Shown here in pieces: positions 483 to 44,029 of a stretch of DNA of 64,000 bases. Location: NCBI GenBank assembly GCA_032718475.1, contig JAUCBJ010008112.1, positions 1-64,000 on the forward strand, written 5' to 3'. Numbering within the stretch: position 1 is the first letter of the stretch; each line of letters begins with the position of its first letter. This DNA is from Nemertoderma westbladi (lineage: Eukaryota; Animalia; Xenacoelomorpha). Made by a program: the position numbers and the translations under genes. The notes beneath the pieces are model-generated. The model was not told the origin of the DNA, searched no databases, and saw nothing but the letters and a program-made list of their open reading frames with translations.

Positions 483-485
483 GTG

Positions 486-21535: not shown

Positions 21536-21546
21536 GTAGGAATGTG
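21536..21546 (+). promoter_or_regulatory. Putative self-priming primer-binding site of element B
   Basis: GTAGGAATGTG abuts the LTR end and is the exact reverse complement of CACATTCCTAC at 20476-20486. No TGG-initiated tRNA PBS is present. Confidence 0.65.
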
Positions 21547-22342
21547 TTTTACTGAACTACGGTTCGGTAGGACTAAAGTTATTTGAAAATTTTGTATTTT
21601 GAGGTAAAAATTTGTATTTGATTAGCTAAGTGCTAATTTTAAAATAAAATTTGATTTGAACCGCGTGTAAAATATTTTTGGAATTGAATACCGGTGTTTA
21701 AAAGGGTTTAAATACCATATTGTACCGGTACAAAATTTTCGTAAAGTAAAACCTAACTCTTTTGTTTTTTCAGGATTCAGAACTCATTTCTAGACTGTAA
21801 CGGGAGCAAGACCGTGTTTAGCAAGTTTGGGAGATAGATAACTCAACAACTTTGGTTGGGAAAATCGCGTTTCGTCCGCAACGTTAAAAACGGAAAGGTT
21901 CACGTTCGGTTTGTATCTGGGAATCTGTTTTTCTGGAGAATTATTGGAGTGGGTGAGTTCGAAAAGTTGCATAAATAAGTTAGGCATTACCGTATTAGTT
22001 AAAATTATTGTGGGTTCCACTGTCTCAAGTATTTATGCATTCCGTATGATTTCTTTGTTCATTGCTGAATTAGTCCGTATTATTGTATTTAATTTACCTT
22101 TTGATAACGCATATCGTTATCCGATTTATTTGTTATAAAATTGGCTGCTAGGCTAATTTTATTATATACTTATTCCGTGACATTTATTTGCTGTAAAATT
22201 GGCCGTTTAGGCTAATTTTATCCATCTGCTATAAAATCGGCCGGTAGGCTAATTTTATAAGACTGTAATTAGTACCGTTTTGTATAAATACGGTAAAACT
22301 CGATACTTTGACACTCACTTTACTTGACTTACAACTACCGAA

Positions 22343-25300
22343 ATGAGTGACAAACAAGACTATACGAAAAATACACAAACCGACTATGACTCATGTGACG
22401 CGGATAAGTCAGCAGCGGAAGGACAACAGGGGAAGACTCGCGAGCCTACCGAACCTACACCGTGTGCGTCACCAGTACATCCAACGGGAGTACCGGATGC
22501 CGTAGTACGAGGCGACGGCAGGACCGAGGACTTTCTAACTGTTCCGCAACCTAGATACAGGGAAACGGACATGGTAAGTTCAGCAGGAAGCACAGAAAGT
22601 GTGGTTAGAAGCGTCGGAGGTTACATGGCGCATATAACCAGGAGTATTGGAGAAGGCCAACGCATATTAGACGGGTTGACCGCTCCGATGTCTCGATTCG
22701 AGTTCTACACCCTCCAGGTTAGAGTACAGAGTAAAGTATATAAGTCCGTAGATAATCTAGTTGGCCTACAAGATCTAGCTAGACAGAGACAGGACATGGA
22801 TACTCAACTTAGAATCCTCGAGAAACTAATGATCACTAGAGAGAAACTGATTCAGTTTAAGTCGACGATTAGACAGATACAACAGGAACAAGCGGACCAG
22901 TTGTTAGGTGAGTCAGTTTCGGACGAATTATTACAACCCGAGGAAGAACAGGAACTGTACCGACTGGATGGACAATTAAAACACCTGACGGACCACTTAC
23001 GTATGTGCGGCGAAGACGTCGGAGATTGGGAAACCGTGCCGGAATATACGAAGGAAACTTCACCCGTACGAATTGAATCGGCACCGGGAATACTGGACCA
23101 ATCGTTGGTAAGTATTCGTAGCGAAATCTGCGAGGGAAGTATAGTCACGTCAGAAGTTGCTCGACAACAGCAAGAATTCCACCGACAACGACAAGAAATG
23201 GAAGAACAAGCTCAACTTCTAGTGATGCAAGCAGCAGTAGAGGAAGAGAAGCTACGCGTTGCGAATATAGCAAGAATCTCTCATCTACAGGAACAAGCTG
23301 AATTAGAAGCAGCTGAAGTAGAAAGGTTAGAAGTAGACATTGCCCGACAAGCGGCAGCGGCAGCGGCCGAGGTAGAGCGACGAGCGGCAGCGGCCGAGTT
23401 AGAGCGACGAAACGCAGCGGCCGAGTTGGAGCGACAAACGGCAGCGGCAGAATTACAACGAGAAAGGTTAGTTTCGGAAGCGCGGGCCGAAATGAAAACA
23501 CGGCAAATAAAAGCTCAATCCGCTATACGACAAGCGGAGTTTGAGGCGCAACGACAACAAACGGAACAACGAGAGAAGACAGTGAAACTTCATTTCGAAC
23601 TCGAGAAGAAGGCGAGAGAATTAGCGAACGCCGAGGAAGATTTGGATCAAAAGGCCCGCGATAGATCGATGAGATCTCGTGACGGACATGATTTGGACCA
23701 GTTAGAGGTAAGACATCGCCAAATTCAGGAACGGAAGAAGGAAGGAAGCGTAGGAGCACCCGGACGGGAACGACAATTAGTAAAAGACGTGTGTCAACGA
23801 TTCCCACAGGTAACTCATATGTTTGCACCGGTTACGAGTAAGGAACCTGTTTCGATTGCGGGTAGTAGTGATATTTCTCCTATCCATGGTGCGACGGAAC
23901 ACAGGTTTGTTATTCCGGACGAGTTTACACCGCCAAGAGCAACGTCGTCGCCCATTCCGAAAGTCAAGGTAAGTAACCCACCGATTACGGATCGTAGTAG
24001 TTTATTGACCGGACCTGCGCTACTGACGACAAAACAGGTGAGTCCACCGTCGACACCTAAACCCGTTACACACTACGCTTACCCAATGACGTTTCGACCA
24101 ACAAGGCCTTTGGATTCAAATGCTGTCATTCGCCCACCGAACCAGTTTACATCGCAATCTACGACTTCGAGGAAGACTTGTGAGCCTACCGAACAACGGA
24201 GAACAGAGACGCGACCATTCAACCATTTTACATCGCAATCTACGACTTCGAGGAAGACTTGTGAGCCTACCGAACAACGGAGAACAGAGACGCGACCATT
24301 CAACCAGTTTACATCGCAATCTACGACTTCGAGGAAGACTTGTGAGCCTACCGAACAACGGAGATCAGTGGACGATGTTCCGAAACGAAACGTGAGAATT
24401 CGTACGACGCAACGAACGCGAGCACGTCGACCACCATATCCGGATGATAGTAGTACTTCGAGCGAATCGGATTACCCGAAACGCGAGGTATTTAGAACAG
24501 GGGCGGCCGATGAATATAAACGCGAGCGTTCAGACAACTCCTTTGCAGACAATCCTCCACAGAATACACCAACACAGAAGGCGTTACAACCAACGGACGC
24601 AATTAGTACACAACAGTTCGCCGACATCCTGCGACCAGTTGTTAACAAGTTGGCTCAGATCGAGGAACGTCTGGAGGAAGGTTACACCGACAGTTCGAGA
24701 AATTCCGAATTCGAACACAATAGACACCCGAAGGAACCACAAAGACCGGTACCTTCAAACCCCACATCGTATCAGGGAAAAGCGCCAAGAAGGGATATCA
24801 ACCAAGTTACCAACCAAGGACGCGAAACTCTGAACGTTGCCGAGGAGATAGCGAAATTCGCAGCCAGACAGGGATTGCCGGTACAACAACCACCGAAGTT
24901 CTCCGGTAGCTCAAAACACTGGCATACCTTCGTAGACTATATCGAATCCCAGATCGCCGTGTGCGCCTTTACATCACGGGAGAAGTTCAATTACTTGCTC
25001 CAAACGTTGTCAGGAGAACCTAAACGTTTGGCGGAGACTTTCGTCGGTGTACCGGACGCTTTCGAACTAGCGTACGATCGTTTAACTTCGATATACGGAG
25101 GTACAGTGAGCATGGCCAGGTCAGTAATAGAGGAACTCTGTAAGGGAGGGGCTATCACTAAACCCGTCGACTTACTAAAACTAGCTGACGAGATCAAGAA
25201 CGCTATCACTACCTTAAGATCAATTGGACAACTTGATTACGGGAATACCCCTACAGTCCTATTAAAGATAATAGGACGACTCCACCATCGACTTCGTCGG

Positions 25301-28300
25301 GAGTGGAGGAAGGTCGAATACCAGCGAGAGGAGCGGGGAGGATTCTTAAAATTAGAAGATGTGTACCTTTTAATATCCAGGGAGGCGGTAGTAGAAACTC
25401 GATCTAACTACACCGACCAGCACATCGTGGCAGAAGGAATCACACTGCCATCCTCTAACCGACAAAAACCCCAGACAACATCCACTAAGACGGCCACTTA
25501 CGCCACACCGACGGAATCACGACAATTCTCAGACGGTAATAGAGTATCTGCGCCCATTGGGACGAAACAGACGAGACAGCAACTCAGCACCGACTTCAGT
25601 GGCTGCCAATACTGCGAGCATCTAGGTAAGCGGTATATCGGTCACAAGTTACGAGGTTGTCGACAATTTCGCGAGTTGAACTCGGAAGAACGACGGCTGC
25701 AAATACGGCCACTGGACTCTTGTTGGCGGTGTACGCGACACGGACACGTCCGTAAAGACTGCCCAAATACCGACACTTGTCCATCCTGTGGACGCAATCA
25801 CGACGGTCTGCTCCACACAGACAGCCACACGCCGACGAAACGCTTCGCCAGGGAACACCCGGAAGCAGCAGCGAGATGTGATGCGGCTTACCAAAAACGA
25901 GAATCAAAAACGACTCCAACCTTCGTGACCCATATTGAGGATTGCTTCTCAGAACAATCCGGATCGTCGGATGAAGAATCAGAAGACGACGATGAATATT
26001 CCAATGGAGACGAACAACCGTCGATCGCGCTCCTGACTACTGATCAACTGAAGGGATTCAGTGTAATCCCGATTAAGGTTACTGGCACAAAGGGGAGCAA
26101 GAGGATCTATGCGATTCTAGATTCAGCCTCATCCCATAGCTACGTGGACGAAAAGATAGCTGACGTCGTGACGGATCTAAAACAAGGTAAGCACGTCAGT
26201 TATACAGTAAGTAGTATGCACGGACAGCGTGCAATACCAGTGACACGAGTCAAGTTAAACTTAGACTCTCTTCTTCCAAAATCGCAACACAGCGAGAGGG
26301 AGAGGTCTTTGTTGCCCTTTAGAGATCTAACCTTTGCGGCTACGAAGGACTTTAGTAACCTACTAGGTCCAGTACCGGAACAATCTCTAGAGGACCGTAA
26401 GTATTTCAGACACCTTGGTGTACCCGAATGTCCTGTCAATTATAGATCGGTAGCAATGCTGATCGGGACAGACCAATTCAACCTACATCAGGTGTGGGAA
26501 ACCAGACCATCGGCAGTTGTAGCGGGAAACGCATACGCCTGCAGAACGCCGATAGGGTGGTATACTCGAGCGCCTGTGCGCACACTAGACGTAAGTGACG
26601 AGGAAGACGATGTACAGAGTACATGTAGTTTATTAACTACAAATTCAATTCATTCCTTTTCACACGACGTGAACCATACTACACTACAGTCGACAAAACA
26701 CGACAGACGTGTAACTAGTATGATAAGTCACAAGGAGCAGCTAACCCACAAGGTGAGTTTAGAACTTGGGGAGAAGACGAGTCAGCTGGAGATTCCATCG
26801 ACGACAGATGATAGGCTTGCGAGTCTACCTACCCCAATAACCTCAACAGTGCCCGTCGATATCGATGATGACGCGTTGAGAAATCATCAGTTGGAACAAG
26901 CCGCCTTGGACAAAGAATTAACGGAGAAGACTATCAGGTGGTTAGAACAAGATACAGCTGAACCTGGTAGCTACGAACCTTGTATGTCGGAACAGGAGAA
27001 ACAATCTCTGAAGATCATGGAAGATACTATCCGCCAGACGAAAGACGGACATTATGAGGTAGGGATGTTATGGCGTAGCCAAAGTCCTAAACTTATAAAC
27101 AACTATCCACTGGCTTTAAGACGTCTACACTCAATACGGCAACGTCTATTGAAGGACGAGAAAGCCCATCTGCAGTATAACACTCAGATGGAGACGTATT
27201 TGACAAAGGGATACGCTATCCGAATGACTAACCCGGAGCGAGTGACCGACCAGACGTACTACTTGCCACATCACTACGTGAGACACCCCGACAAACCAGA
27301 CAAAGTACGTGTAGTCAATGACTGTGCGGCTCTGTTTGAGGGAATGTCCCTCAATAGTGAGTTGATGGATGGACCGAACATGAATAATTATCTTATGGGG
27401 GTGATTATGCGCTTCCGTCAGCGTCAAGTAGCCTTTACTTGCGACGTTGAAGCGATGTTTCACCAAGTAAAAGCGTTAGAGCGAGACAGAGACAGTTTGC
27501 GGTTCCTCTGGTATCCGGAAGGAGACTTAAGCCTACCACCAGCGACTTACCAAATGCAAGTTCGCGTTTTCGGTGCCAGAGACAGCCCAAATTGTACGAT
27601 GTACGCCCTAAAGCAAGCCGCTAGGGATCAGAAACATCTATATGACCCAGAGATAATTAGAATTGTGGAGCGTGACTTTTACGTTGATGACGGATTACAG
27701 AGTTGCGACACAGTAGAACGTGCTACAACAGTAGCACATCAATTACGGGACTGCTTGGCGGGCGGAGGTTTTAACCTCACCAAATTCGCCTCAAACAGTG
27801 CCGAATTAGTAGACTCATTCGGAACTACTGAGCGTGGAGGTGGTGACATAGACCTAGAGTTCGAACCACTACCGACGACTAAGGTGTTAGGGCTCTTTTG
27901 GGACCCAAACACAGACAACTTTCGAGTGAAGGTGAGACTGGACAGTCAAGGGAACACACTGACAAAGAGATCATGCTTGTCAAAATTGAGCCGATTGTTC
28001 GATCCGTTAGGATTCATCAGTCCAGTGATACTGCAAGCCCGCATTTATATGCGCAGTATCTGGAAGGATGGACTAACATGGGACGAGCCGATCTCATCAG
28101 ACCAAGTGGACTTATGGAAGACCTGGGAGGCGGAATTATCTTCGCTAGAGGATTATTTCATACCCAGGGTTTACTTTCCATTGCAAAGTACATTTCCTGA
28201 CAACTTGGAACTACACTGTTTTTCTGACGCCAGTGACAACGGTTTTGGTGTGGCAGCGTACTTACGCAGACAAGTAGAATCAGACGAGTTCGATGTTTCG

Positions 28301-31300
28301 CTCATTACTTCTAAGGCTAAGACCATGCCTACTAAGTATATGACGACACCACGAGCCGAGCTACAAGCCGCAACCCTGTCAACCACCATCGTGAACCTCA
28401 TACAGACAGAACTACAGTCGAGTTTACAGATATTTTATTGGACTGACGCGACGTTGGTTTTATTTTACATAAACAACGACACACTCGAATTCAAGACATT
28501 CGTTGCTAACCGTCGCGCGGAAATTCTAGACCGTTCAATAAAAGGGGATTGGCGACATTGTCCCGGACCACAAAACCCAGCTGATATTGCGTCGCGAGGA
28601 ATGATGCCTGAGGAATTCTGTAAACCGGAGAACAAAGAGTTTTGGCAACACGGACCCCAGTTCTTGCAGAAATCGACACAAGATTGGCCTCCGTTATACG
28701 ACAACAAGTCCAACACTATTCCCAAGGACGCCGAAATCAAGAAACCAAAAAAGGGGAAGACAAAGAAAAAGACGACGGCGGCGAAACTCAAGAAAAAACC
28801 GAAGGCGAAATGGAAAGATATAACTTCAAAGGTCAAGAGAGGAAGACTTGCGAGCCTTTCTACACCAGACATATCGCCAGACGGTCAACCAGACACGTTA
28901 CCAGACGGTCAACCAGACATGTTACTAGACAGCCAACCAGACATTTTGCCAGACATATCACAAAATGTTCCACCAGACGCTAGTAACACACTGACAAACA
29001 GTAAAGCCGCAGTTTCCCTATTGGAGCGGCCTTCTATTGACAAACAACCAGATACGTTACTAGACGTATCGCCAGACACATTACTAGACAGTCGACTAGA
29101 CACTAGTAATGTATTGACTAACAATAAAGCCGCAGTTTCCCTATTGGAGCGGCCTTGTATTGACAAACTACCAATTTTGACACACTTGAGCAACCATAAG
29201 CACGGTGAAACCTCATGTATTACAGATGTTAACTACACCCTAATTATGGAGAAAGGGATACAAGGAGAGCCGAGATGGGGATATGATATCCAAGAGGAGG
29301 CAGCAGCACCATTCGAAAGATTTGGAGCCAAGGATTATACTATATTCGGTATAAAAGAATTATCGGAAAGTACAGCGAAACTCGCGAGAACTAAATATGA
29401 CTCGAATGTATTAAAGAGAAGGCAAAACGCATTGAACGAAAGAATCGAAAGTTTGCGCCAAACCTTCAACGAACTTTACCCGTACGATGCTTTGTGTGAT
29501 ACGGGAGACATTAGCGAAGACCCCGATACTGAAATTAGTCGTTTGTATCATACCATGCAATACCTAAAGGCGCACGAACCTATGCCCGCGGTACGCGATG
29601 AATTCGATGGAATGCATCTTTACAGACGAACTCGAGGGGACGATAGAGAAACCAAGGAAGCATTTTCAGTTTATAAACTTTATTATCAATGCGGTTCTTG
29701 TATGCGCGAACAACGAAATGCGATTCCGATGCGTTTGAATAAGGAAAATCCCGAACCGATATTGGCGAGGTGTTCGAATCATCAACAACTACGCTACCAG
29801 GAAGGAGGGTATCCTTTATCGAATCCATATCATTCATTTGCTATGACCGGACCAAAGGCGGGAGAAACTGTCATTTACCCACCTAAGGTTGTTGAACCCG
29901 ATGTATTTGAACTTACGCTGGACGAGGCGAATCAGTCAACCCGCGAAAAGAAAGAAGCTCTTAGCCTATACAGAGCCTACAAGGCTTTCGAGAAAGGTGA
30001 GATGGAAGAATGGGGTGGAAGACTCGCGAGCCTACCTTGCCATTGGACGTCACACGATCAAACTTCAGCTAAGGAGATGACACCGGAAGTTTTCGAGAGC
30101 ATAAACTTTGCTCAAAACGTTATTCAGAGACTACAGATTGCATCCCCGGAGAGGCCAAGAGAAATGCAACCGTATAGTACTTCAACTACGAAACCATTGA
30201 GTACGACACTCAATTTCCCTATTAGTATACCAGTCCGACAGGATACGACGTACGAAATACCCATCGTGGATCATCCAGAAATCATTTCAAACTTGGAGTT
30301 TCTTCCTGCAGTTGTTTTCAGCGATATGAGTAAGATATATGATTTACGTAGACATATTACTCAAAAGGTCGTGCACAACGTTCCACCTCATATTCAAGAT
30401 TTCAAGGAACTGGATAGAGCTGGTGCCGACATAGCTCCGAGTAATCTGAAAGGATATCTAACCAAGACGATTCGTTTATGGATTGGAACCGGAACCTTCG
30501 AGTCGGATACAGATATTGCCGCAGATTGGCGAGGTAAGGTTATTCGTTTCGATGAGGATAAGGATATAGAGAAGATTTGGCAACCTTCGGAAGAATTGTT
30601 GGATGAATGGACTAGGACGTTTAGATCGTTTCAGGAAAACGGTTATATGTTTTACGATAACGAGGGCGGCAGTCATCAGCAGAGTTTGACTTCTAAGACT
30701 ATACAGATTAGAGCGGCGGACGGAGTCCTGCACGTTTTCAGTAGACAGAGGAGCGACAAACGAATGCCGATACCTCCAGCGAATACAAAGCGACACCATC
30801 TTATCACCGATATAGTAAAGAAGATGGACCAAGCTTGTAATATTGACGCTAGAATGCTACCGAAGATGGTAAGAAACATGATTTTAGATAAAACTGTTGT
30901 AAAGGTTGGATCAGGAGTAAGGGAGGATTTAATTAGCGACTTCGCCGGCATGACGGACAGCGATGACCGACTACCGACACCATACGTCGACACTCGACCT
31001 CTTATTCTGTGGTCTATAGAACAGGGATATTTTCGTGAGTATAATACTCAGAAGACTGGAACTGGATACATTTCCTACCTGTTATTCAATTGGGATTATA
31101 AGGAAGGTAAAAGAAACAAGTATATTGAAACTTATGGAGAAGGTGATACTCCAGATATGAGTGAGTTTGAATCACAGCTTAAATGGAGAGGATGCGTGTA
31201 TTGGGCTATTACGTCACCTCCAAGAGCGGTCTTACAATATTATTTAGCAATAGAGTCGTCAGTGAATGTTTGCCTAATCGCCGACATCGTGTCTCGGACT

Positions 31301-31381
31301 CTCAAAAGACATCCACTTTGTCTCGGAGAAGATCATACGTTCTACATGGAAGGGAGAATTCGTACCGACGTGTTTAGATGA
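22343..31381 (+). CDS. Element B polyprotein: Gag (capsid-like domain + 3 Cys/His knuckles) - aspartic protease - RT - RNase H - linker - Zn finger - DEDDy exonuclease
   Basis: 3012-aa ORF. Motifs: PKFSGSSKHW (Pao gag), CWRC..GHVRKDC, ILDSASS (~26120), FYVDDG (~27680), HCFSDAS and NPADIASRG (RNase H), FYDNEGG (30656). No HHCC/DDE integrase motifs seen. Confidence 0.93.
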   Translation: MSDKQDYTKNTQTDYDSCDADKSAAEGQQGKTREPTEPTPCASPVHPTGVPDAVVRGDGRTEDFLTVPQPRYRETDMVSSAGSTESVVRSVGGYMAHITRSIGEGQRILDGLTAPMSRFEFYTLQVRVQSKVYKSVDNLVGLQDLARQRQDMDTQLRILEKLMITREKLIQFKSTIRQIQQEQADQLLGESVSDELLQPEEEQELYRLDGQLKHLTDHLRMCGEDVGDWETVPEYTKETSPVRIESAPGILDQSLVSIRSEICEGSIVTSEVARQQQEFHRQRQEMEEQAQLLVMQAAVEEEKLRVANIARISHLQEQAELEAAEVERLEVDIARQAAAAAAEVERRAAAAELERRNAAAELERQTAAAELQRERLVSEARAEMKTRQIKAQSAIRQAEFEAQRQQTEQREKTVKLHFELEKKARELANAEEDLDQKARDRSMRSRDGHDLDQLEVRHRQIQERKKEGSVGAPGRERQLVKDVCQRFPQVTHMFAPVTSKEPVSIAGSSDISPIHGATEHRFVIPDEFTPPRATSSPIPKVKVSNPPITDRSSLLTGPALLTTKQVSPPSTPKPVTHYAYPMTFRPTRPLDSNAVIRPPNQFTSQSTTSRKTCEPTEQRRTETRPFNHFTSQSTTSRKTCEPTEQRRTETRPFNQFTSQSTTSRKTCEPTEQRRSVDDVPKRNVRIRTTQRTRARRPPYPDDSSTSSESDYPKREVFRTGAADEYKRERSDNSFADNPPQNTPTQKALQPTDAISTQQFADILRPVVNKLAQIEERLEEGYTDSSRNSEFEHNRHPKEPQRPVPSNPTSYQGKAPRRDINQVTNQGRETLNVAEEIAKFAARQGLPVQQPPKFSGSSKHWHTFVDYIESQIAVCAFTSREKFNYLLQTLSGEPKRLAETFVGVPDAFELAYDRLTSIYGGTVSMARSVIEELCKGGAITKPVDLLKLADEIKNAITTLRSIGQLDYGNTPTVLLKIIGRLHHRLRREWRKVEYQREERGGFLKLEDVYLLISREAVVETRSNYTDQHIVAEGITLPSSNRQKPQTTSTKTATYATPTESRQFSDGNRVSAPIGTKQTRQQLSTDFSGCQYCEHLGKRYIGHKLRGCRQFRELNSEERRLQIRPLDSCWRCTRHGHVRKDCPNTDTCPSCGRNHDGLLHTDSHTPTKRFAREHPEAAARCDAAYQKRESKTTPTFVTHIEDCFSEQSGSSDEESEDDDEYSNGDEQPSIALLTTDQLKGFSVIPIKVTGTKGSKRIYAILDSASSHSYVDEKIADVVTDLKQGKHVSYTVSSMHGQRAIPVTRVKLNLDSLLPKSQHSERERSLLPFRDLTFAATKDFSNLLGPVPEQSLEDRKYFRHLGVPECPVNYRSVAMLIGTDQFNLHQVWETRPSAVVAGNAYACRTPIGWYTRAPVRTLDVSDEEDDVQSTCSLLTTNSIHSFSHDVNHTTLQSTKHDRRVTSMISHKEQLTHKVSLELGEKTSQLEIPSTTDDRLASLPTPITSTVPVDIDDDALRNHQLEQAALDKELTEKTIRWLEQDTAEPGSYEPCMSEQEKQSLKIMEDTIRQTKDGHYEVGMLWRSQSPKLINNYPLALRRLHSIRQRLLKDEKAHLQYNTQMETYLTKGYAIRMTNPERVTDQTYYLPHHYVRHPDKPDKVRVVNDCAALFEGMSLNSELMDGPNMNNYLMGVIMRFRQRQVAFTCDVEAMFHQVKALERDRDSLRFLWYPEGDLSLPPATYQMQVRVFGARDSPNCTMYALKQAARDQKHLYDPEIIRIVERDFYVDDGLQSCDTVERATTVAHQLRDCLAGGGFNLTKFASNSAELVDSFGTTERGGGDIDLEFEPLPTTKVLGLFWDPNTDNFRVKVRLDSQGNTLTKRSCLSKLSRLFDPLGFISPVILQARIYMRSIWKDGLTWDEPISSDQVDLWKTWEAELSSLEDYFIPRVYFPLQSTFPDNLELHCFSDASDNGFGVAAYLRRQVESDEFDVSLITSKAKTMPTKYMTTPRAELQAATLSTTIVNLIQTELQSSLQIFYWTDATLVLFYINNDTLEFKTFVANRRAEILDRSIKGDWRHCPGPQNPADIASRGMMPEEFCKPENKEFWQHGPQFLQKSTQDWPPLYDNKSNTIPKDAEIKKPKKGKTKKKTTAAKLKKKPKAKWKDITSKVKRGRLASLSTPDISPDGQPDTLPDGQPDMLLDSQPDILPDISQNVPPDASNTLTNSKAAVSLLERPSIDKQPDTLLDVSPDTLLDSRLDTSNVLTNNKAAVSLLERPCIDKLPILTHLSNHKHGETSCITDVNYTLIMEKGIQGEPRWGYDIQEEAAAPFERFGAKDYTIFGIKELSESTAKLARTKYDSNVLKRRQNALNERIESLRQTFNELYPYDALCDTGDISEDPDTEISRLYHTMQYLKAHEPMPAVRDEFDGMHLYRRTRGDDRETKEAFSVYKLYYQCGSCMREQRNAIPMRLNKENPEPILARCSNHQQLRYQEGGYPLSNPYHSFAMTGPKAGETVIYPPKVVEPDVFELTLDEANQSTREKKEALSLYRAYKAFEKGEMEEWGGRLASLPCHWTSHDQTSAKEMTPEVFESINFAQNVIQRLQIASPERPREMQPYSTSTTKPLSTTLNFPISIPVRQDTTYEIPIVDHPEIISNLEFLPAVVFSDMSKIYDLRRHITQKVVHNVPPHIQDFKELDRAGADIAPSNLKGYLTKTIRLWIGTGTFESDTDIAADWRGKVIRFDEDKDIEKIWQPSEELLDEWTRTFRSFQENGYMFYDNEGGSHQQSLTSKTIQIRAADGVLHVFSRQRSDKRMPIPPANTKRHHLITDIVKKMDQACNIDARMLPKMVRNMILDKTVVKVGSGVREDLISDFAGMTDSDDRLPTPYVDTRPLILWSIEQGYFREYNTQKTGTGYISYLLFNWDYKEGKRNKYIETYGEGDTPDMSEFESQLKWRGCVYWAITSPPRAVLQYYLAIESSVNVCLIADIVSRTLKRHPLCLGEDHTFYMEGRIRTDVFR
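24139..24362 (+). repeat. 81-bp in-frame tandem repeat (about 3 units) in gag
   Basis: NQFTSQSTTSRKTCEPTEQRRTETRPF repeated with period 81 (24171, 24252, 24333). Confidence 0.9.
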
Positions 31382-32971
31382 TTCCTTGAACCCTTCTACA
31401 ACTCTGACGCTCAGTGTAATGCCTTTACTCGAGCAGGATTTAGTATATTTCGAGACGTGTATCTTCGCTGTGCGGGATCTCTTATCGAAAGACCATCTAT
31501 GTTTACATTGTTACCCTATGAAGGAGAACGTATCGTGGAGATTACGGAAGAATCACGGCAGACGCGCGCGCCTATCGGTCACCTTGGTGATGAATTCGAA
31601 GTAACTACTACGATCGCCGACGATCCTTTAGAGGAACTTCTTGAGATAGAAAGGAACCTCCCGAAGAAATCTCAGACGGAGATTCGACAACTTGAAGCAA
31701 CAGATGCTATAGTTTGTATACAACCTTCAGAAACCTACCAACCCATAGACCCAGATGATTATGATTATAGTATGGGAGGAAGCGCTCGACCGATTGGAGA
31801 TCTTATATACGAACGAGTGTGGTACCCTGCCAATACGATGTGTAGTAAATGTGGCGTCGCTGGACATCATATGGCAAAGTGCAGTGGAAAGCACATTACT
31901 ACGACTCAGCTAATCTGTGGATGGTGTGGGGATCAAGGGTCTCATACCTTTTATACTTGCTGGAGATTTATGGCTCAATGTACTTACTGCAATATAAAGG
32001 GACATCGAGCATCTGAATGCCAACTGAGAGACATACCTTATGAACACGAATCTGTAAAACTCGTGAGGAAGTTATTTGATGAGTGGGAAGATTTAGCCGA
32101 CGAACATGTATCGGCACAGAGAAGACGGTTTCCGATGAGAGCGCATCTCGGATTTTGGGCGGTAAATCCCCAGACGATGATGTCGGAAGGATATATCTCC
32201 GCTATGCCCCAATACGACGAACTTATCGAGGTTGTCGATATTTTGCCCCACGACAGCGGATTCCGAGTGGTGCGCGAGTATCTGTTACAAATTCACCCGG
32301 ATAACAAAAACACGTGGAATTTTCAGAAAGTCGTTAATCGGATTACGTATGGTGAATTCGATCGTTTCCGAACTGAAAAACGGAATAAAGGAGCTTGGTT
32401 AACCGTCGCATGGGCGTACCGAGCCGCGTTTTACCACAAACGTATACGAGCGAGCGTATTCGAGGAAGAGGAGGTCCTAGAGGCGACAAATATATCAGCC
32501 ACTCCGGTTGCGCCGTCTGCACGTCACCCTCGGGAGGACGGGCAGGGTAGGATCATACGGGTCCAGAAGGTGGGCCAACAATTAAAGAAAATTATTAATG
32601 TAGAAGAACGCAAGGGAGTTGAGCCGACTATTCGAGTTACTCGGGATACGGTATCACTTCCAAGAGAACCAGTAGGAGGATCGGGACATACACCAGCTGA
32701 TCAACAGGGGGCGCAAGCTACTCTTGGGTCTGCGTCGTCCACTTCTCGCGCGTTCCCAGACGTTCTACCAACTGTAGTGACAACTGATCGGTCACGAGGA
32801 ATCGGTCGAGGTTTTGGGATGCTAAATAAACGAATTTGCGAGGAAATAGTCGCACCATCTCTCAACGTCCCAAGTAAACCAGTGACTCGCCCCACAAGTC
32901 CCATATCGCGAGCAAAGTCACCTGTGCGCAGTTTTCGAGGACGCGGCAGGGCTCGATCCACTAAGCGATAA
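31382..32971 (+). CDS. In-frame continuation of the element B polyprotein past a single TGA: three CCHC fingers + basic tail
   Basis: Same frame as 22343. DVFR*FLEPF...AGFSIFRDV aligns with ECFRRFLTLF...AGFAIFKDV of element A ORF2. Fingers: CSKC..H..C, CGWC..H..C, CTYC..H..C. Confidence 0.85.
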   Translation, partial: FLEPFYNSDAQCNAFTRAGFSIFRDVYLRCAGSLIERPSMFTLLPYEGERIVEITEESRQTRAPIGHLGDEFEVTTTIADDPLEELLEIERNLPKKSQTEIRQLEATDAIVCIQPSETYQPIDPDDYDYSMGGSARPIGDLIYERVWYPANTMCSKCGVAGHHMAKCSGKHITTTQLICGWCGDQGSHTFYTCWRFMAQCTYCNIKGHRASECQLRDIPYEHESVKLVRKLFDEWEDLADEHVSAQRRRFPMRAHLGFWAVNPQTMMSEGYISAMPQYDELIEVVDILPHDSGFRVVREYLLQIHPDNKNTWNFQKVVNRITYGEFDRFRTEKRNKGAWLTVAWAYRAAFYHKRIRASVFEEEEVLEATNISATPVAPSARHPREDGQGRIIRVQKVGQQLKKIINVEERKGVEPTIRVTRDTVSLPREPVGGSGHTPADQQGAQATLGSASSTSRAFPDVLPTVVTTDRSRGIGRGFGMLNKRICEEIVAPSLNVPSKPVTRPTSPISRAKSPVRSFRGRGRARSTKR

Positions 32972-33057
32972 AAGGGAGGGCAAGGGTGGACGGAAGACTC
33001 GTGGGCCTTTCTTATGATTTTGTGATTTATTTGAATTTATATTTATATTTGTGTTTA

Positions 33058-33270
33058 TTCCGAACTTATGCAATTTATATTATTCCGAACTTATGCAATT
33101 TGTATTGTTCCGAATTTATGAAATTTAGAAATAAGAACTTATATTTAGTAAAACTTATATTTAGTAAGAATTTATATTTTATATTTACGTGATTATTTCG
33201 AACCTATGCAATTTATATTATTCCGAACTTATGCAATTTATATTGTTCCGAATATTATGCAATTTATATT
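33058..33270 (+). repeat. AT-rich ~25-bp degenerate repeats in the 3' UTR of element B
   Basis: Recurrent TTCCGAACTTATGCAATTTATATT. Confidence 0.7.
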
Positions 33271-33758
33271 TTATAAGCAGTATTTGTATTTACAGTGAAA
33301 TAGAAAGTTTTATAGATAGAAAATTTTGTGCTCAGAAAGACTCATATTTGTAATTATTCCAAACTTATGCAATCTACATTTAGGTAAGAAAGTATTTGTA
33401 ATTACTTGAATTTATGCAATATTTGGGATGCAATAGTAGATGGAAGACTCGCGAGCCTTTCTTATTGTTTTCATTTATTTGTATTTGTAATTGTTTGAAT
33501 TTATGCAATATCTGAGATGCAATAGATTTATATTGGTGAATTTAATTTAGATTTATATTGTACTTACTTAGTAAAGCCTTAAATACGTAAAGTTTGAATT
33601 TGTAATTATTTTTGTATCGAATCATTACGTAGAAAGGAAGTATTGTTTGAAATTTAATTGTAAATATGTAAGTACGCCCTAAGTATTCTATAGTTTAATT
33701 GATTATTGGTGAAAACCGTATATTTTATGCACGATAATATCCTGTTTTCATGGAGCGG

Positions 33759-35689
33759 TATAGAATTATATTCCCTAAATGCCGTGGATTTTCAAAATTT
33801 TATTTTATTCGGATTAACTTTTGTAAAGATTGCTTTAAGTTCTCATTCGTATTGGTTCTATCATTTGTACATCTATCGGTCAAGTGGTTCAGTAGCTCAG
33901 TTGGTAGAGCGTTGGAAATTATATGTGTAGTAGGTATCGAGATCGAATCCTAGTAAGTGCGAATTATTTTTTGTACAGAATTTCAACTCATTTAAATTAA
34001 CCGCTACAAATTAATTGCATTCGTCTGTACCAATGAGGCTGTAGTTATTTGATTGTAACCAATGTCGTGCAAGTTATATATTAGCTGGACCAATAGCTAT
34101 CTTTAAAACCCCGTTAGAACCCATAGAACAATCGAGAATTTTCTCGATTGATTGCGGCACAAATTTGCTATATAAAGGTGCGATTTGTTCATTAGTTATC
34201 AATCTACACTACTTCAATATTCTCTCAGTTATTTAGTTATCTGATATTTGTTTATTCTGTGCTTAGTTTATTCTCAGATTACATTGTATTATAATTGTAT
34301 CTTCTGTAATAAAGTCAGAATATTCTCTCAGCTTTTCTATCTGTTTTACTATGGATTCACTACGGTGAACAAACTCAGGGACAGGATGGCCGGCTAGAGA
34401 TCGGGCCGCAGCAATGAACGGGAACATCACGGGAATGTAGACGAGAGACAACCCGCAATACCATCTAGAGTTATTCGCCCATCGCCTGAAAGGTTAGACA
34501 GCGTTCGATCCTTGCTACCTAAGTATAAGACCAAAAGATCAAAAGGTAGACGTAGTGACACGCTGTAAGCCCAAAATTACATCATAGGGACTGTACTGTC
34601 TTGATTCAGGAAAACCCACAGTAGACCTTCACATTCCTACGGGGGAGGGAGAGCGCAAGCAGATACTAGTACGCAGATAGGACGTAGGCACACCGGTACA
34701 AGGCATACACATTGGTTAGGGTGCAGCAAACTGTACGCTTAACTCTTGCTAAGTACAGGTGCGCGTGCGACTATTTGCAGTACGACAGTGTCCATTGCAT
34801 TAGAACTTGTAGGCTAGGGGGGTTGCTGTGTTTTCACCTGAATTGGGATTGTACCGTTCAGGCGGTAGGGCAGTTTACGTACTAGGCGCAAATAAATTGA
34901 GGCTATCAGGGATACTAACATCTACCGTGTCCCCGCCAACGCCCTAATAGGAAGTTACCCGGACTACCTGGGTGACTAAAATTCTAGATAGGAGCCAGGA
35001 TAGCTATTAGTACCTGTACGCCTACAGTAGTAAACTAACACATCTCTTCTTAGTATCAGGGACCTGGTACCTAAAATTGCCGAATTCTGGGCGTAGTATT
35101 AACCTTATGCCTGAATTTGAGTCCTGGAAATACGCAAGAGGGGAAGGAACCTTATCATTCGTGAGTATTGGACCTACAAGTTACAAAATTAGAATATTCG
35201 TAAATGCACACCGTACCCAGTAATTATATATGTGAAGGAGCAAAACTGTTTTGACCGTTCAGAATTAACACACGCGCGTTAGAAATTATTTACACCTCGA
35301 AATATATAAAATTAACTTTGTCCGTACTGTGCTTTGCCCGCTAGTTAGACATCTCCAAATCTCTGCCTGTACCTAGCTAGCGTCCCTTTGCCCAACCATA
35401 TAAATCACACCGCGGCAAAGTATACGAGCCCCTTAGTCCGTCAGTGAGTCAGCCTGATTTTAGGATTCGCTGCGCGGGATTTTGTTTTATCGAAGTTTGT
35501 CTGCTCGTAGACTGTTTTCTGCCTCACCGGTTATAAGAGATCAATACTGCAATATATTCGCTTACTTAGAGTTTACTGTTTTGGTGAGAAGGTCGGATTT
35601 ATGATTTGATTTACAAACTTTACAGTAAGATATTGCAGGTATTGTTACCGTCTCTTCCAATAGTAGGAATAGGCGTATCTCTTCAATTA
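33759..35689 (+). repeat. 3' LTR of element B
   Basis: Direct repeat of 19605-21535; preceded by purine-rich GGAGCGG and followed by TTGTC. Confidence 0.96.
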
Positions 35690-36333
35690 TTGTCTTTCAA
35701 GTATATCGGTGGGTGCCGTGATATCTTAATCGACAAGAATTTCAGATGGTCAAAGGGTTCAACAGATTTATTTAATAGATTTCATTAATACTATTAATAT
35801 TTGTTAATATTTTGAGCTTCAATACTACTGTTAAATGGACATCATTCTACTATATGTATTATTTAATATACGGTATGAGAGCAATATTGCAAGAAGCAAT
35901 GTCAGTGAGAAGAGGCAAGTCGTTTCCAAGGTCTACCCAGAGCTTGGTATAGCCGAGACACGAGGATCTGAACTTTGCATTCCTAATACTCCACTTACCA
36001 ATAATACTTGAGTATAGTAGGGGCGGTATATTGTACTTTTAATAAGTATGGACATTTCATCTTACTGTAGTCACGTATTTATAGTATGATACGGACAGTA
36101 AGGAAAGAGAAAATGAATTATTTCTCGCCGTTAAACGAAATATATTATACTAAGTAATTAAGTAATAAAACACGAATATATTGCACTAATCTACTGAATA
36201 ATCTCTAAAATATTATTCTACTAAATAAAACTAAAGAAAACGATTATATAATAAAATTACATAATAATACATACATAAATATAAAAATAAAAATAAATAA
36301 AATAATGCAGTCACACACCCACTCCTAACACTG

Positions 36334-39300
36334 TTACGTTGGGGAGTCCCTAGATGTTTGTTGGATTAGGGAGGTGGTCGTGGGAAGAGTCTCTTGCCTT
36401 CCATAGTTACCAGACAACTCTCGGTCTCTTTCCAGTAAACATAAACGACCAACTGGGCGATTAAGTTGTTGTGTTTCGAATACAATTCCAGGTTTCTTAA
36501 AGTTACGTCGCATGACGATGAGTTCTATCGATCGCACTAAACCATCATCGGATATATGAGTCTCGATGATACGACCTGTCTGCCACCTCTTACGTGGAAG
36601 ATCTGATTCCACGATAAGAACCATGTCTCCGGCGCTGACGTTTTCTTGCTGCGCAAACCACTTTGTTCGAAGTTGTAGCTTAGGAAGATAATGTTTTTCG
36701 AAATGGTCAGCGAAACAACAGGATAATAACTGCATAAGTTGCCAAGTTTGTCGGCAGTATTCATCTCCGTCCGTGATTTCCGATTGCGGGAGCATGGCTA
36801 CAGGTTTCTTTAGTAGGAAATGCGCTGGTGTTAGCGCTTCTAGGGAGTCGGGACTCGATGAGACTGGCATAAGCGGTCTCTCGTTAAGATAGGCGGCGAT
36901 TTCTTCCATTAACGTCCGCAAAAGTTCGTCGGTGAGATACGCGCGGCACGGCACTATAAAGTGAAATGCGGTCTTCACGCTTCGTATTAGTCTCTCCCAA
37001 CTTCCTCCCCACCAAGGGGCGTTGGCGGCGTTGAAGGTCCAGCTAGATGCTGTTACCCTTAGCTGATCGTCCACCTGTCTTTGGTTCCAATCTTTCACGT
37101 AAGCTTTGATCTCATTATTGGCGCCAATGAAGTTTGTTCCTTTGTCGGATCTTATAGTGTTGCTAGTTCCAAAACGAGCGATCTGTCGGCGTAAACTCAG
37201 TATGAAGCTGTTGGTAGATAGATTGTTCACCATATCTAGATGAATCGCTCTACAAGTCATACAGACAAAGATGACACACCATCGCTTGACTATAGTCCTA
37301 GCACGATATACTTCAATAGGGCCAAATAAATCCACACCAGTATTAGTAAAGGGTGGTTCATAGAAGCTTACTCGTTCCCTAGGTAATTCTGCCTCGCGCT
37401 GTGTTAAAGGCCTACTAAATGCTTTCCTGCAGGGTATACAGTTCCTAAGAACTTGGTTTAGAGCTCTACAGGGCTTATGGAAATAATAGCGAGTTCGAAT
37501 TTCGCTAAGAACTCGTTCTCTACCAGCATGGTAAAGTCTACTGTGAACATCTACAATCATCTTGATTTGTATTTCAAGATTTCTAATGAGTATGGGAAAC
37601 TTAGTGTCAAAGGACAATGGAGCATTAGTTAATCTCCCTCCGACACGTATTAATACATCTATCATTGTGCTAGAGAAACGATCCCTTAAGCGCATCTGTG
37701 GATTTCTCAACAACAGGAAATACTTATCGGAATCTTCATAGCATTGCAGGGGTCTCAGTATCTGCTTATTGGTATCATCATGTTCTTGGTAACTGATCTT
37801 CTCAGTCAGAAACCTATCAGACACTCTGTAAACGGGAAGGTCTTTAATAGCATGGACCTTTTCAGATACTATTGGAGCAGTATCACTAGCGATCTTCGTC
37901 CTGGAATAGTGATGATGGAAACATCTTTTCAGGTACACAACGGCCTTGCAAAGCCGATTCCAGGAGCTATAATGATCTATTGCTCTTTGTAGGAGAGGGG
38001 AGACGTCTGGTGTTCCAGATTTCCAGTCTCTTTCCCTGATCTCTATAACGGATTTATTCGTATTTCTCGTAACATCCGTGGGTATGTTTAGATCTATGGC
38101 GTCGTCACCAGAGGCGTGTAGTACAGACAGATCTATCACGGGTTTAAATAACTTTGATTTACTCGTCCGGGTTTTAGGTTTGACTTTCTCCGCTCCCTTG
38201 GCTTGTCTAATCTCTGCGGTAGTGAGATGAGGGAGCCATTCCTCCTCTTCTTTACTCAGGAAGTCGGGTCCACCTAACCAGTCTGAAGTATCTATCAACT
38301 CTTGAGGAGTTGCTCCTCTGGAAGCGAGGTCAGCTGGATTAATCGTCCCAGGGCAATGTCTCCATTGATCCGTATTAGAGCGACTAAGTGTAATGGCTAC
38401 TCTTTTGGTAATGAAGACGCTGAACTGACAGACTTCATTTGTTATATACTCCAGAACGAGTAAAGCATCAGTCCAATAGACAGTTTTCTCAAGTGGATAG
38501 TCGATCTGTTCTGTTACATTCCGGCCGATGGCTGTAGCGTATAGATCCGCCTTTAACTCCGCTCTAGGAACTCGTAGTTTGTTGTTTATTAGGGCCTTAG
38601 AGGCGACCAATGCAACCTTAATTCCATCCGGAGTTTCAACCCTCAGGTAGGCTACTATACCTATTCCCAAATCGCTGGCGTCTCCAAACACATGGAGTTG
38701 ATAGGCATATGTGGGGAGAACGTGACCAAAATATGAACGGGAAATCTTAAAGTTCTCGATGGATGGTAGATAATCTTCCCATTTCATCCACTTCTTTAGC
38801 AGTTCTCCCTTAAGTGGATCATCCCACGAGTGTTTTTCGAGCCACATTTGTTGTACTAAGCTCCGAGCAACTAATATGACTGGGCTAATATATCCCAATG
38901 GATCGAAATAAGTGCTCAGGATACTTAAACAAATCCATTTAGTTCTAACTGGATTATCTCGTTGTTTTAACTGAAAGAATAGAATGTCTCTCTCCGTGTC
39001 CCATTTTAATCCAAGAGTCTTGGTTTCTGGAAGATCGTCCTTAATGAGGTCCAGGTCTTTTAACACTTCGGTCTTCTACTGGTATCAATTCCCGGAACTC
39101 ACGGGAGGTACTAGTGAATTTGGTTAGGCGAAATCCACCTCGTCGTAAGCACTCAACCGTTCCATTATCAACATTTATCGCTTCTTCCACCGATGGAAGG
39201 GACTTTAAATTGTCATCCATGTAAATATCCCGTTTGATGTTGTCGATAACCGCTTTAGAGAAGGCATCTCGATTGTCATCGGCAGTGGTACGCAGTACCG

Positions 39301-42300
39301 AACAAGCGTTCGAGGGGCTCGACATGATCCCGAAAGCCTGGATTGTCCTTCAGTACTCCACCGGTTTTAGGTTGAGGTCTCCTTCAGGCCACCACAGAAA
39401 TCGTAGGCTGTCTCGCTCCCTATCCAACGCCTTTACTTGTAGGAACATGCTTTCGATGTCCGAAGCGAACGCGATCGAATATTGCCGCAGTCTTAGTAAT
39501 ATTCCCAACAAAGATTGGAGTAAGTTGGGTCCCGGCAACAGTTCAGTATTCAGGGATTGACCCATGTAAAGGGCGGAGCCGTCAAACACTACCCGGACTT
39601 CGTTGGGTTTACCGTGCTTGGGAACGTAATGATGTGTTAGATAATACGTTCTCTCCGTTATGGGTGTTTCTTCCGGAACTCGCTCCGCGTATCCCTTATC
39701 TATAAATTTCTTCAGTTGGGTTTTATACATTTCCCTGGCTTGAATGTTAGACGTCAGACGCCGATGTAGTTGAGCGATTCTTTTTTCCGCTAAAGGTCGG
39801 TTATTTACGAAGCTGGGTTCTCTCCGTCGGAACGGAAGACCAATCTCATAGCGACCTTCTTCCTTCAGATAACATGTAGTCGTTTCCGGAATCTGCTTGG
39901 CTCTCTCTTCCTCGACAGACAAGGCTTTGTCGTAGGAATTAGGCTCTACGGCTTCTTGAGTAAAGAATCGTACGGCGTGTTCATCGCGGATTTTGTTATT
40001 ATATCGATCTATCACTTCGTTTAATTCATCGTTATAGGTAAATTGTTCACCATGTTGGTTGATAAGGTGACATAGGTTGACTTGGTTTAGCCAAGTTTGG
40101 TTCGCAGTGAGGAGATCAATGGTATTTTCCTCGTCGTAGAGGTTGCTTATGTCGTCGTTATCTGAGGAGTATGGGGTTTCATCAGCTGGGATTTCTTCTT
40201 CACTTATATCTTCCTGCCATTCACTCACCTGGTGGACTCGTTCACTTGGGAGTCTTTCCAGTAAGGTCCTATGGGAAGGTCCAGTGAAGTACCAACCTAC
40301 TCTTGTTCTTCCCGCATACGTCTGGAGTGGTCGCGGTCGAGCAGGCCATTTTTCTAATGTCTCAAGCGCCTCGTGCGCATTTTGGCCGAGTAAAATCTGT
40401 ACCCCTGGATAATCGGTCCTGAATCTAGGTATGTTGTGTTGCTTTGTAAAATGATCTTCATCCCAGTTGTAAGGCTCCACTTGGCTAGTAGCAAAGTTCT
40501 TTATCGCCACCATCTTGACCGACCTTACACTATTTTCTCCTAGTTCATCCTGGGGAGTGCACAACGCTCCCACGTAGTAATCTGTGGCTACTGTGGATTT
40601 CCAAACCTGCATAATTCCAGAAAGATTCTGTTTGGTTCGGAACTTTGGTTGACCATCAAAGATGTCTTCGGCTAGATCCTTGTCGATGAAGGCGCCTGTA
40701 CTGCCGGAGTCAAGGAGGGCGTTTACTATCAAGCTCTTCCCTATCCCATGGACCCTCAGTTGCATCACCGGGAATTCTCGGATACCTACAGATGAAGTTG
40801 GCGCTTTACCAGAGAGCGGTCTTTCTGGAATAGGCAGTAGAGGATCTTCTCCATCTGTTTCTGTCTCGTATGTAAGTGCTCGATACACAGCTGTGTTGAT
40901 CATATAACAGGATTCATTTTCGTCGGAGAATTCATCCATGTAGAATCCTTCCATCTCCGAACTATGGTCAGTGTCGTTCACATCACTGAATTGGACATTC
41001 GGGCTCACTTACCTGACTCGTACAGGTTCTGTCAAATTCGGTGTGCAGCAAGATATGATGTTTCGCGCCGCACTTCGCACACCTTGCGTCCGAATAACAG
41101 GTCCGTCGTTGATGTCCTCGTCTGAGGCAATTATAACACAACCGCTTATCCCACATGACGTCACGCCTATCCTTCAGGGATTTCTTTAAGAATTCATCAC
41201 ACCCACTCAAGCCATGTGGCCCGTCGCACAATACACATTTAGGTTTGATGTTACTTACCTTAACCTGCGTTGTGTTGTGCACACTTGTTCTTTCTTCAGG
41301 CTTTCTTCCATGAATTCTCTTAGGAGACATAGGGGGAGTTGTTACCTGTTCTCTCCTGCCACTGGTTTGAGACTTAGATTTACTTACGTCTTTCCTAACT
41401 TTATTGACATAATAAGATCTTTCGGTGTCCGTATAACACACTGGTGTTACCTCTTTCATAGTAACGGCTTTTTCACTTACCTTACTTTCCAGAGTCTTCT
41501 CTCTAGACTGTTTTAGGAGTTGTAATCTTACCTCTCTGTTTAAGAATGACAGAAGGTCCGCCATGGTTGGATCTCTATGTTGTTGGTCCATCAGATAGAG
41601 AACCTTTTTGTCCCAGCGAGTACCTACTCCACCCTTTGGCAAAGTTGATGCTACAGCTCCTACAACCATAGAATTCTGGTATTCATGAGACTTACCCAAC
41701 CAGTCTAGCTGTTTACAGATCTCCTGAATCTCATCGGAAAACTCTATAATCCCGCTGCTAAGAAACTTTCTGGGCGCCATTAATTTCGCATAAAGATATC
41801 TAGCTATGTTTGTCCTATTACCATACCTGATGTTTAGTGTATCCCAAACTTGTCTTAATCCGTCTGGATGTCCAATAAACTTTAACGCCATTAACTTGGG
41901 AGGTCCTTCCAAGCACTTGATGAGGAATCGAAGTTTCTCTCCGTTAGATAGTACAGAGTTCTGTATGATATCTTTATAATATTCATTAAAAAGTAACCAT
42001 TTCATCTCATCTCCATTGAACTTGACGACCTCTCCTACCTTTACTGCTTGACGGGCTTCCGTTCTAGCCATCTGACGTGTAAAACTTTCTTGAGCCATCG
42101 TATTATTTAATATCGAATTATCGGTATATAAATTTCTCGGATTATGATCAGATCTGTATGGGATATCATTATCAACAGTCTTATAATTACCCTTAATAGG
42201 GTTTACTATAGGAGTTTCTACTTCGCTAGCAGTATAGATGTGTGTAGGCTCCACACCTTGCGCATGAAATACTTCAGACCTAATGGGCTGACACATTGTT

Positions 42301-43793: not shown

Positions 43794-44029
43794 ACCATCG
43801 AGCTAAAATTATATACAACGGGGTCTAATAGTGTCTGACAGGAACGAAGCACACCATCGAGCTAAAATTATATACAACGGGGTCTAATAGTGTCTGACAG
43901 GAACGAAGCACACCATCGAGCTAAAATTATATACAACGGGGTCTAATAGTGTCTGACAGGAACGAAGCACACCATCGAGCTAAAATTATATACAACGGGG
44001 TCTAATAGTGTCTGACAGGAACGAAGCAC
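43764..44029. repeat. 59-bp tandem repeat, 4.5 identical units, at the truncation point of element A gag
   Basis: GTCTAATAGTGTCTGACAGGAACGAAGCACACCATCGAGCTAAAATTATATACAACGGG at 43764, 43823, 43882, 43941 and 44000 (partial). Confidence 0.93.

Follow-up and report, generated by a model that had tools for sequence, protein, structure and literature searches.

An integrase-less, multi-copy BEL/Pao retrotransposon of Nemertoderma westbladi whose RNase H is followed in frame by a predicted exonuclease-CCHC module

The 64,000-nucleotide stretch analyzed here, hereafter the window, comprises positions 1 to 64,000 of the forward strand of contig JAUCBJ010008112.1 (assembly GCA_032718475.1) from the xenacoelomorph Nemertoderma westbladi. 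It contains a 16,085-bp long terminal repeat (LTR) element of the BEL/Pao type, named element B, at positions 19605 to 35689 of the plus strand. Apart from one TGA, a single reading frame of B is open from 22328 to 32971 (22343 to 32968 from the first ATG; 3547 codons, 10.6 kb). This frame encodes gag, protease, reverse transcriptase (RT) and RNase H, has no integrase behind the latter, and runs on into a module composed of a predicted exonuclease and three zinc knuckles. On either side of B lie, on the minus strand, parts of a second Pao-type element, named element A, in which an integrase is present and the homolog of the module is a separate open reading frame (ORF), referred to as ORF2. 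The features of both elements are as follows, in window coordinates.

19600-19604, plus strand: left target-site duplication (TSD) TTGTC, identical to the five bases at 35690-35694
19605-21535, plus strand: 5' LTR, 1931 bp, ends TA...TA, identical to the 3' LTR at 1928 of 1931 positions
22343-31378, plus strand: part of the polyprotein frame ahead of the in-frame TGA, beginning at the first ATG, with N-terminal extension, gag, protease, RT, RNase H, linker, N-terminal part of the ORF2 homolog and exonuclease-like domain
24899-25312 (amino acids 858-995), plus strand: gag core, Pfam DUF1759, E 4.5e-11
26114-26140, plus strand: protease motif ILDSASSHS, read from the translation
27677-27694, plus strand: RT motif FYVDDG, read from the translation
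27962-28447 (amino acids 1879-2040), plus strand: Pfam Peptidase_A17 (Pao retrotransposon), E 2.4e-41
28574-28693, plus strand: NPADIASRG...QDWPP, the last block common to B and integrase-bearing Pao polyproteins
28739-28816, plus strand: Lys-rich stretch, read from the translation
28859-29173, plus strand: PD-rich linker with a 115-nt direct repeat
29229-29230, plus strand: recurrent breakpoint, with other sequence between the two bases in a few contigs of the runs X1, X2, X3 and X5 described below
29249-30550, plus strand: N-terminal part of the ORF2 homolog, opening with ATG, about 430 amino acids, of no known family
30551-31378, plus strand: predicted DEDDy-type (DnaQ-like) 3'-5' exonuclease fold, from motifs, profile and predicted structure
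30647-30670, plus strand: ExoI motif, YDNEG
30896-30943, plus strand: ExoII motif, KVGSGVREDLISDF
31235-31261, plus strand: ExoIII motif, YYLAIES, with Glu where the family has Asp
31379-31381, plus strand: in-frame TGA between exonuclease-like domain and zinc knuckles, private to this copy or rare
31382-32971, plus strand: rest of the frame, with spacer, three CCHC knuckles, C-terminal block, Arg-rich tail and stop
31841-31882, 31916-31960 and 31979-32020, plus strand: the three CCHC knuckles
32072-32335, plus strand: conserved C-terminal block (F.E..AD...R...W.GF)
33759-35689, plus strand: 3' LTR, 1931 bp, three mismatches to the 5' LTR
35690-35694, plus strand: right TSD TTGTC, matching 19600-19604
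14234-17161, minus strand: separate ORF of element A, 976 amino acids, homologous to the exonuclease-CCHC module of B
36337-39075, minus strand: pol end of element A with Peptidase_A17, RNase H, Integrase_H2C2 and DUF5641 (Pfam), which shows what B is without

As is usual for BEL/Pao elements, B has two LTRs bordered by a short TSD (TTGTC on both sides). The near-identity of the LTRs together with the 5-bp TSD indicates that B was inserted recently, and the TSD points to a staggered cut of the integrase type. An earlier note on this DNA, made from the sequence, had described near-identical LTRs and a clean TSD and had concluded on a recent insertion by an integrase; the LTRs, the TSD and the recency were confirmed. 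Both LTRs are bounded by TA...TA (19605-19606 and 21534-21535, and likewise in the 3' LTR) and not by TG...CA, the usual LTR termini; an integrase that moves B must accept such ends. No primer-binding site starting with TGG was found directly after the 5' LTR.

The Pao-type signatures of gag and pol, DUF1759 and Peptidase_A17, were both above the Pfam cut-offs. The protease motif contains LDSAS, which we take to be the active site, and the acidic motifs of RNase H are readable in the translation. Amino acids 1332-1827 of B are 32% identical to the pol of its minus-strand neighbor. Pfam RVT_1 had no match in B, and a phmmer search of the RT-RNase H part against solved structures gave none at E<=0.1; the RT is a putative one, assigned by homology to the neighboring pol and by the YVDD motif. 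Ahead of gag, an N-terminal extension of about 850 amino acids (22343-24898) is rich in Glu, Ala, Arg and Gln, resembles a coiled coil and is unusual for a Pao gag. It holds three near-identical repeats of about 26 amino acids (FTSQSTTSRKTCEPTEQRR...).

B and the neighboring integrase-bearing pol are 42% identical through RNase H, the NPADIASRG block and the motif W..GP.FL..W.P, and the likeness stops near 28730, inside the Lys-rich stretch. The integrase that follows RNase H in BEL/Pao elements (H2C2, DDE core, DUF5641) is missing in B, where the Lys-rich stretch and the PD-rich linker stand instead; the two copies of the linker repeat (28936-29050 and 29059-29173) are 81% identical. Pfam showed no match to rve, Integrase_H2C2 or DUF5641 in 28655-32968 at E<=10, and a tblastn search of B with the integrase of its neighbor gave nothing at E<=10. 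B has no integrase, as the earlier note had read from the translation, and the cryptic integrase that it had named as a finding that would contradict it was not detected by either search. A search of a large protein collection with amino acids 2030-2700 of B retrieved 33 long Pao polyproteins, in which the RNase H end alone was matched (12-20% of the region). Integrase Pfam domains are present in 31 of these relatives, and the other two break off at the integrase or a short way into it. None of the 33 matched a profile of the exonuclease-CCHC module, and no other RT-RNase H-exonuclease fusion was found among them.

Downstream of the linker, 30290-32335 of B is 27% identical to the separate ORF of A over 752 columns (E 3e-61). 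The homology reaches further upstream, where amino acids 2365-2495 of B match minus-strand positions 18088-17717 (29% identity, E 1.6e-10), a region that is broken in A. For 29249-30550 neither a Pfam family nor a usable ESM Atlas match was found; because it is homologous to a region downstream of the integrase of A, it is assigned to ORF2 rather than to pol. The frame of B does run into the homolog of ORF2, as had been proposed. To speak of an integrase replaced by the module, as the earlier note did, is misleading, since the module is native to the element family, namely its downstream ORF, which has come to lie in frame. The further statement that no stop interrupts the frame is correct for the junction between RNase H and module, but not for the whole module, which is interrupted by the TGA at 31379-31381. 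All contigs placed at this codon in the sequencing runs described below differ from the window (two of X1, 12 of X2 and two of X3), and the TGA faces a sense codon of the ORF of A in the protein alignment.

B with its TSD stands between the ORF of A at 14234-17161 and a minus-strand gag-pol at 36337-43756. Because these two share strand and order and have the insertion of B between them, they are regarded as one element, and the simplest reading is that an older Pao element with two ORFs received B in the spacer between its pol and ORF2. The LTRs of A could not be delimited in the window, and we therefore infer the nesting from this arrangement.

When a profile of the modules of A and B was searched against 1.84 billion representatives, 24 proteins were retrieved at E<=1e-3 (best 9.6e-14), two of which were rejected as false matches to repeat proteins. 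The relatives are unnamed proteins of 250-820 amino acids from environmental assemblies (ENA/Logan contigs of 2.4-18.6 kb). In a word-indexed protein collection no match was found either with the ORF of A or with an alignment of 21 family sequences. This alignment is characterized by D-x-E at ExoI, K-x-G-S-x(4)-D-x(3)-D-F at ExoII and Y-x3-D at ExoIII, with three CCHC knuckles and then the C-terminal block behind them. Eight Cys/His columns are invariant over the 21 sequences, the ExoII Asp (D213 of the alignment) is nearly invariant, and most members have Asp at ExoIII. B has the Exo motifs followed by the three knuckles and the F.E..AD...R...W.GF block, and a profile of 19 library proteins, built without the window sequences, gave 138.5 bits with B and 127.4 bits with A. 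The D-x-E of ExoI and the Asp of ExoII are present in B, whose YDNEG and KVGSGVREDL align with the motifs of the family and of EXD2. In one environmental protein, P0003 (1563 amino acids), the exonuclease-3xCCHC module shares a frame with a gag of the Pao type (DUF1759) and with an aspartyl protease, to which it is joined directly; Pfam showed no RT in this protein. Here the module was fused to Pao proteins a second time and independently.

Among solved structures, the family profile matched EXD2 (6k17, E 4.5e-13), Egalitarian (2e-4) and WRN exonuclease (6e-3), as well as chains 7c42/7c45 of T. brucei RNase D, where the exonuclease part and the CCHC part were matched alike. Of 18 relatives scanned with Pfam DNA_pol_A_exo1, only P0011 was matched, and its 23.3 bits fall just short of the 23.6 required. 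An AlphaFold2 model of 30551-31378 computed from a 23-row alignment reached a predicted local distance difference test score (pLDDT) of 73.6 and a predicted template modeling score of 0.74, an earlier model from two rows having been useless (pLDDT 26.6). All nine Foldseek matches of the model at E<=1e-3 were DnaQ-like exonucleases. VIA-align gave Z scores of 12.1 for NrnC (161 residues, root-mean-square deviation (rmsd) 3.6), 11.2 for Nibbler, 11.1 for WRN exonuclease, 10.6 for RNase D and 9.7 for T. brucei RNase D; the alignments to NrnC, Nibbler and WRN cover 158-171 residues, with rmsd 3.3-3.6. The module of B is predicted from this model to have a DnaQ-like fold and, with two of the three DEDDy motifs present, to be an exonuclease. 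The description of the downstream part as an exonuclease-CCHC module, already given in the earlier note, is borne out for the fold and the knuckles.

Further copies of B were seen in three DNA sequencing runs with one organism label, from three studies (X1, X2 and X3), in which about 0.7 of the words sampled from 28400-31400 were present. No RNA run with this region was among those listed. Their contigs were aligned on 27500-33800 in 399 (X1), 7089 (X2) and 2888 (X3) pieces, mostly 90-100% alike; 24, 182 and 115 pieces, respectively, fitted in part. Many contigs with variants of their own cover 28766-29400 (35 X2 contigs at 29061, for example), and these differing bases within the linker mean that it exists in many diverged copies. 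Forty variant rows, less two behind the frame, left 38 in-ORF variants for analysis, which are the best supported of 179. Of these 38, 28 are synonymous, where 33% would be expected for transitions (p 4e-7), as are 17 of the 26 downstream of RNase H. The linker and the module are multi-copy and under coding constraint, and the integrase loss is not unique to this copy, nor an assembly error, either of which would have contradicted the earlier note. Shorter deletion derivatives of the B family were also seen, with joints from 29385 to 31418 (X1/X2) and from 29405 to 31530 (X3), which skip about 2.0-2.1 kb, that is, most of the N-terminal part of ORF2 and the exonuclease-like domain.

At 29229|29230, contigs of X1 and X5 match the window up to 29229 and then depart from it, those of X2 and X3 enter it at 29230, and one X1 contig joins 28861 to 29230. 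In the 30 bases seen of each diverging contig, those after 29229 are open in the pol frame, and those before 29230 contain several stop codons in the frame of the module, just ahead of the ATG at 29249. Searched in the window, the bases of the loose ends were not present. They would fit a two-ORF relative, in which pol runs on and is followed by stops and then by ORF2, and would put the loss at the point where an integrase is expected to start. Because a few contigs leave the window exactly at 29229|29230, this junction is probably the site of a deletion that removed the integrase. In X5, a run with another organism label and possibly one of RNA, 20 contigs match B at 95-100% identity, seven of them at least at 99%, and one diverges at 29229; this likeness may be due to a closely related organism, to an element present in both, or to the labeling.

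The account that we favor, with moderate confidence, is that B is a recent, multi-copy BEL/Pao LTR element without integrase that likely arose by an in-frame internal deletion and likely receives its integrase in trans. In a two-ORF Pao lineage, the deletion would have removed the integrase together with the gap that follows it, so that RT-RNase H would now share one frame with the downstream ORF that the family already had. B would still make gag, protease, RT, RNase H and the accessory module, and integrase-bearing relatives would supply the integrase by which it was inserted, a supply suggested by the 5-bp TSD. Most copies are probably without integrase as well, judging from the few loose ends and from the summed word depth of contigs, which in X2 and X3 is of similar order across the RT/RNase H, linker and module bins. 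Since it is made within the polyprotein, the module would be packaged with the RT, and its role is most likely that of a zinc-knuckle-guided 3'-5' exonuclease. It would act on 3' ends of the element's RNA or complementary DNA (cDNA), or of host small RNAs; the proofreading or primer-processing role put forward in the earlier note is speculation. That note had offered three options, an integrase-deleted derivative complemented in trans, a reverse-transcribed spliced RNA and a stable two-component family, and the first fits best.

Several observations weigh against this account. The loose ends come from one or two contigs per run, with 30 bases each, in which no integrase was seen, and they could also stem from an unrelated insertion or from another subfamily. 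No contig bridging 29229|29230 was present among the contig records listed. In X1 the module bins lie about 10-fold below the RT/RNase H bins, contig depth is no copy number, and the variants analyzed for constraint are a best-supported selection. Concerning the exonuclease, the Y-x3-D of ExoIII is altered, with the Tyr kept and the acid being Glu in B, A, P0001 and P0004, and Pfam DNA_pol_A_exo1 had no match in B or A at E<=10. No integrase-bearing element with the LTRs of B was found, and these LTRs end in TA...TA and not in the usual TG...CA.

It is unlikely, in our estimation, that B belongs to a stable two-component or self-sufficient lineage, in which the RT-RNase H-exonuclease fusion is functional and selected rather than a by-product of a deletion, and a co-evolving partner element or a host enzyme integrates. 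The exonuclease would there work beside the RT, trimming 3' ends, processing primers or proofreading, in an element that is unusually long at 16 kb. Such a lineage would agree with a fused frame kept open for 3547 codons apart from one stop private to this copy, with the share of synonymous variants downstream of RNase H, with a coverage of linker and module as deep as that of RT/RNase H in X2 and X3, and with P0003, which unites Pao-type gag and protease with the same module in one frame. However, purifying selection is equally expected if the element requires the module in cis but as a protein of its own, a deletion keeps the frame by chance in one case out of three, and the 33 long relatives include no further fusion of this kind. 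That B-type elements form a self-standing lineage, in which the 3'-5' exonuclease fused to RT-RNase H trims or proofreads 3' ends during cDNA synthesis and a partner integrates, appears quite improbable to us; if true, the lineage would be the retroelement counterpart, in a 16-kb element, of the nidovirus ExoN, which permits large genomes.

The exact and recurrent breakpoint, and the joint from 28861 to 29230, which reuses the right-hand end like an acceptor site, could suggest a retro-copy of a spliced transcript in which the integrase was skipped as an intron between RNase H and ORF2. This is very unlikely, because no placement that the bases of the window allow gives the extra segment at 29229|29230 a GT start or an AG end; the spliced-RNA option of the earlier note thus found no support in the bases seen, and the segment comes from one or two contigs per run. 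The region 29249-30550 has no family assignment or predicted structure and might be thought to hide a highly diverged integrase within its roughly 430 amino acids. Its homology to the stretch upstream of the separate ORF of A, downstream of A's complete integrase, and the lack of any HHCC/DDE-type Pfam signal at E<=10 render this extremely improbable. A private post-insertion deletion or an assembly error in this copy has a next to negligible probability: no support was found for it, the TGA alone being private to this copy, most of the words sampled from the region are present in runs of three studies, and the differing bases of the many variant contigs over the linker exclude a single-locus origin.

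The nested retroelements are flanked by tandem arrays of a 62-63-bp unit (483-4166 and 45116-46242), which are about 86-95% alike within and between arrays. Another array, of a 59-bp unit in three identical copies, lies at 43705-44058, just upstream, in the minus-strand sense, of the gag region of A. A third Pao-type element, named element C and truncated by the end of the window, occupies 61477-63999 on the plus strand, with 57377-59487. In its gag region it is 74-83% identical to that of A (41538-43415), which lies in inverted orientation. Stretches upstream of the gag of C match 5531-6050 and 13056-13436, downstream of ORF2 of A; they may be remains of A-family LTRs, and their order differs between both places.

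The present data place the exonuclease module in a second class of retroelements, both as a separate ORF and as an RT-RNase H fusion in a young, abundant, integrase-less family, and the exonuclease-3xCCHC family of environmental assemblies gains a likely retroelement origin. Two testable questions arise, namely why a retroelement needs a 3'-5' exonuclease, and whether an LTR element can thrive while relying on others for the integrase only.

With canonical BEL/Pao elements (Belpaoviridae) B shares the LTRs, the 5-bp TSD, the DUF1759 gag, the Pao-type protease-RT-RNase H and the NPADxASRG block. It differs from them by the lack of integrase, by a frame of 3547 codons compared to about 1700-2400 amino acids, by the N-terminal extension of about 850 amino acids and by the TA...TA ends of its LTRs. 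Non-autonomous, partly coding LTR retrotransposons mobilized in trans are known mainly from plants. Like these, B has lost one essential function and is nevertheless high-copy and recent with a normal TSD; unlike them, it misses the integrase only, gag, protease, RT, RNase H and the accessory enzyme being under constraint. The cellular DEDDy exonucleases T. brucei RNase D (PDB 7c42-7c4c), EXD2, WRN exonuclease, Nibbler and NrnC have the same fold (Z 9.7-12.1), and the combination of exonuclease and zinc knuckles is already known, because the 7c42/7c45 chains match both parts. They are, however, products of cellular genes and not retroelement ORFs, their identity to the module is about 10-17%, and the domain of B has an insert of about 75 amino acids between ExoI and ExoII besides the Glu in ExoIII. 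To our knowledge, extra enzymatic ORFs are rare in LTR retrotransposons.

No literature on a DEDDy exonuclease in BEL/Pao elements was found, although the slash in the name may have hampered part of the search; among LTR retrotransposons, such exonucleases came up for those of bdelloid rotifers alone. According to Rodriguez, Kenefick and Arkhipova (PMC5408684), DEDDy exonuclease ORF3s occur in the bdelloid LTR elements Juno and Vesta and in Athena/Terminon retroelements, with one catalytic acid conservatively changed (DEDD to DEED), and a retroelement-specific ORF pool was proposed. As described there (PMC5408684), they resemble the module in being an RNase D/WRN-like DEDDy exonuclease encoded by an additional ORF behind pol, in the conservative change of one acid, which in B is the ExoIII Glu for Asp, and in the Cys/His metal motifs of some members. 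The likeness is one of description, and the bdelloid elements, as portrayed there (PMC5408684), are not BEL/Pao, keep their integrase and have a separate ORF3. Compared to them, A and B belong to a BEL/Pao host lineage, their module has a C-terminal block besides its three CCHC knuckles, and that of B is fused to RT-RNase H without integrase. Whereas DEDDy ORFs are known from bdelloid LTR elements, a DEDDy module in BEL/Pao, with its CCHC knuckles and its integrase-less fused form, appears to be new.

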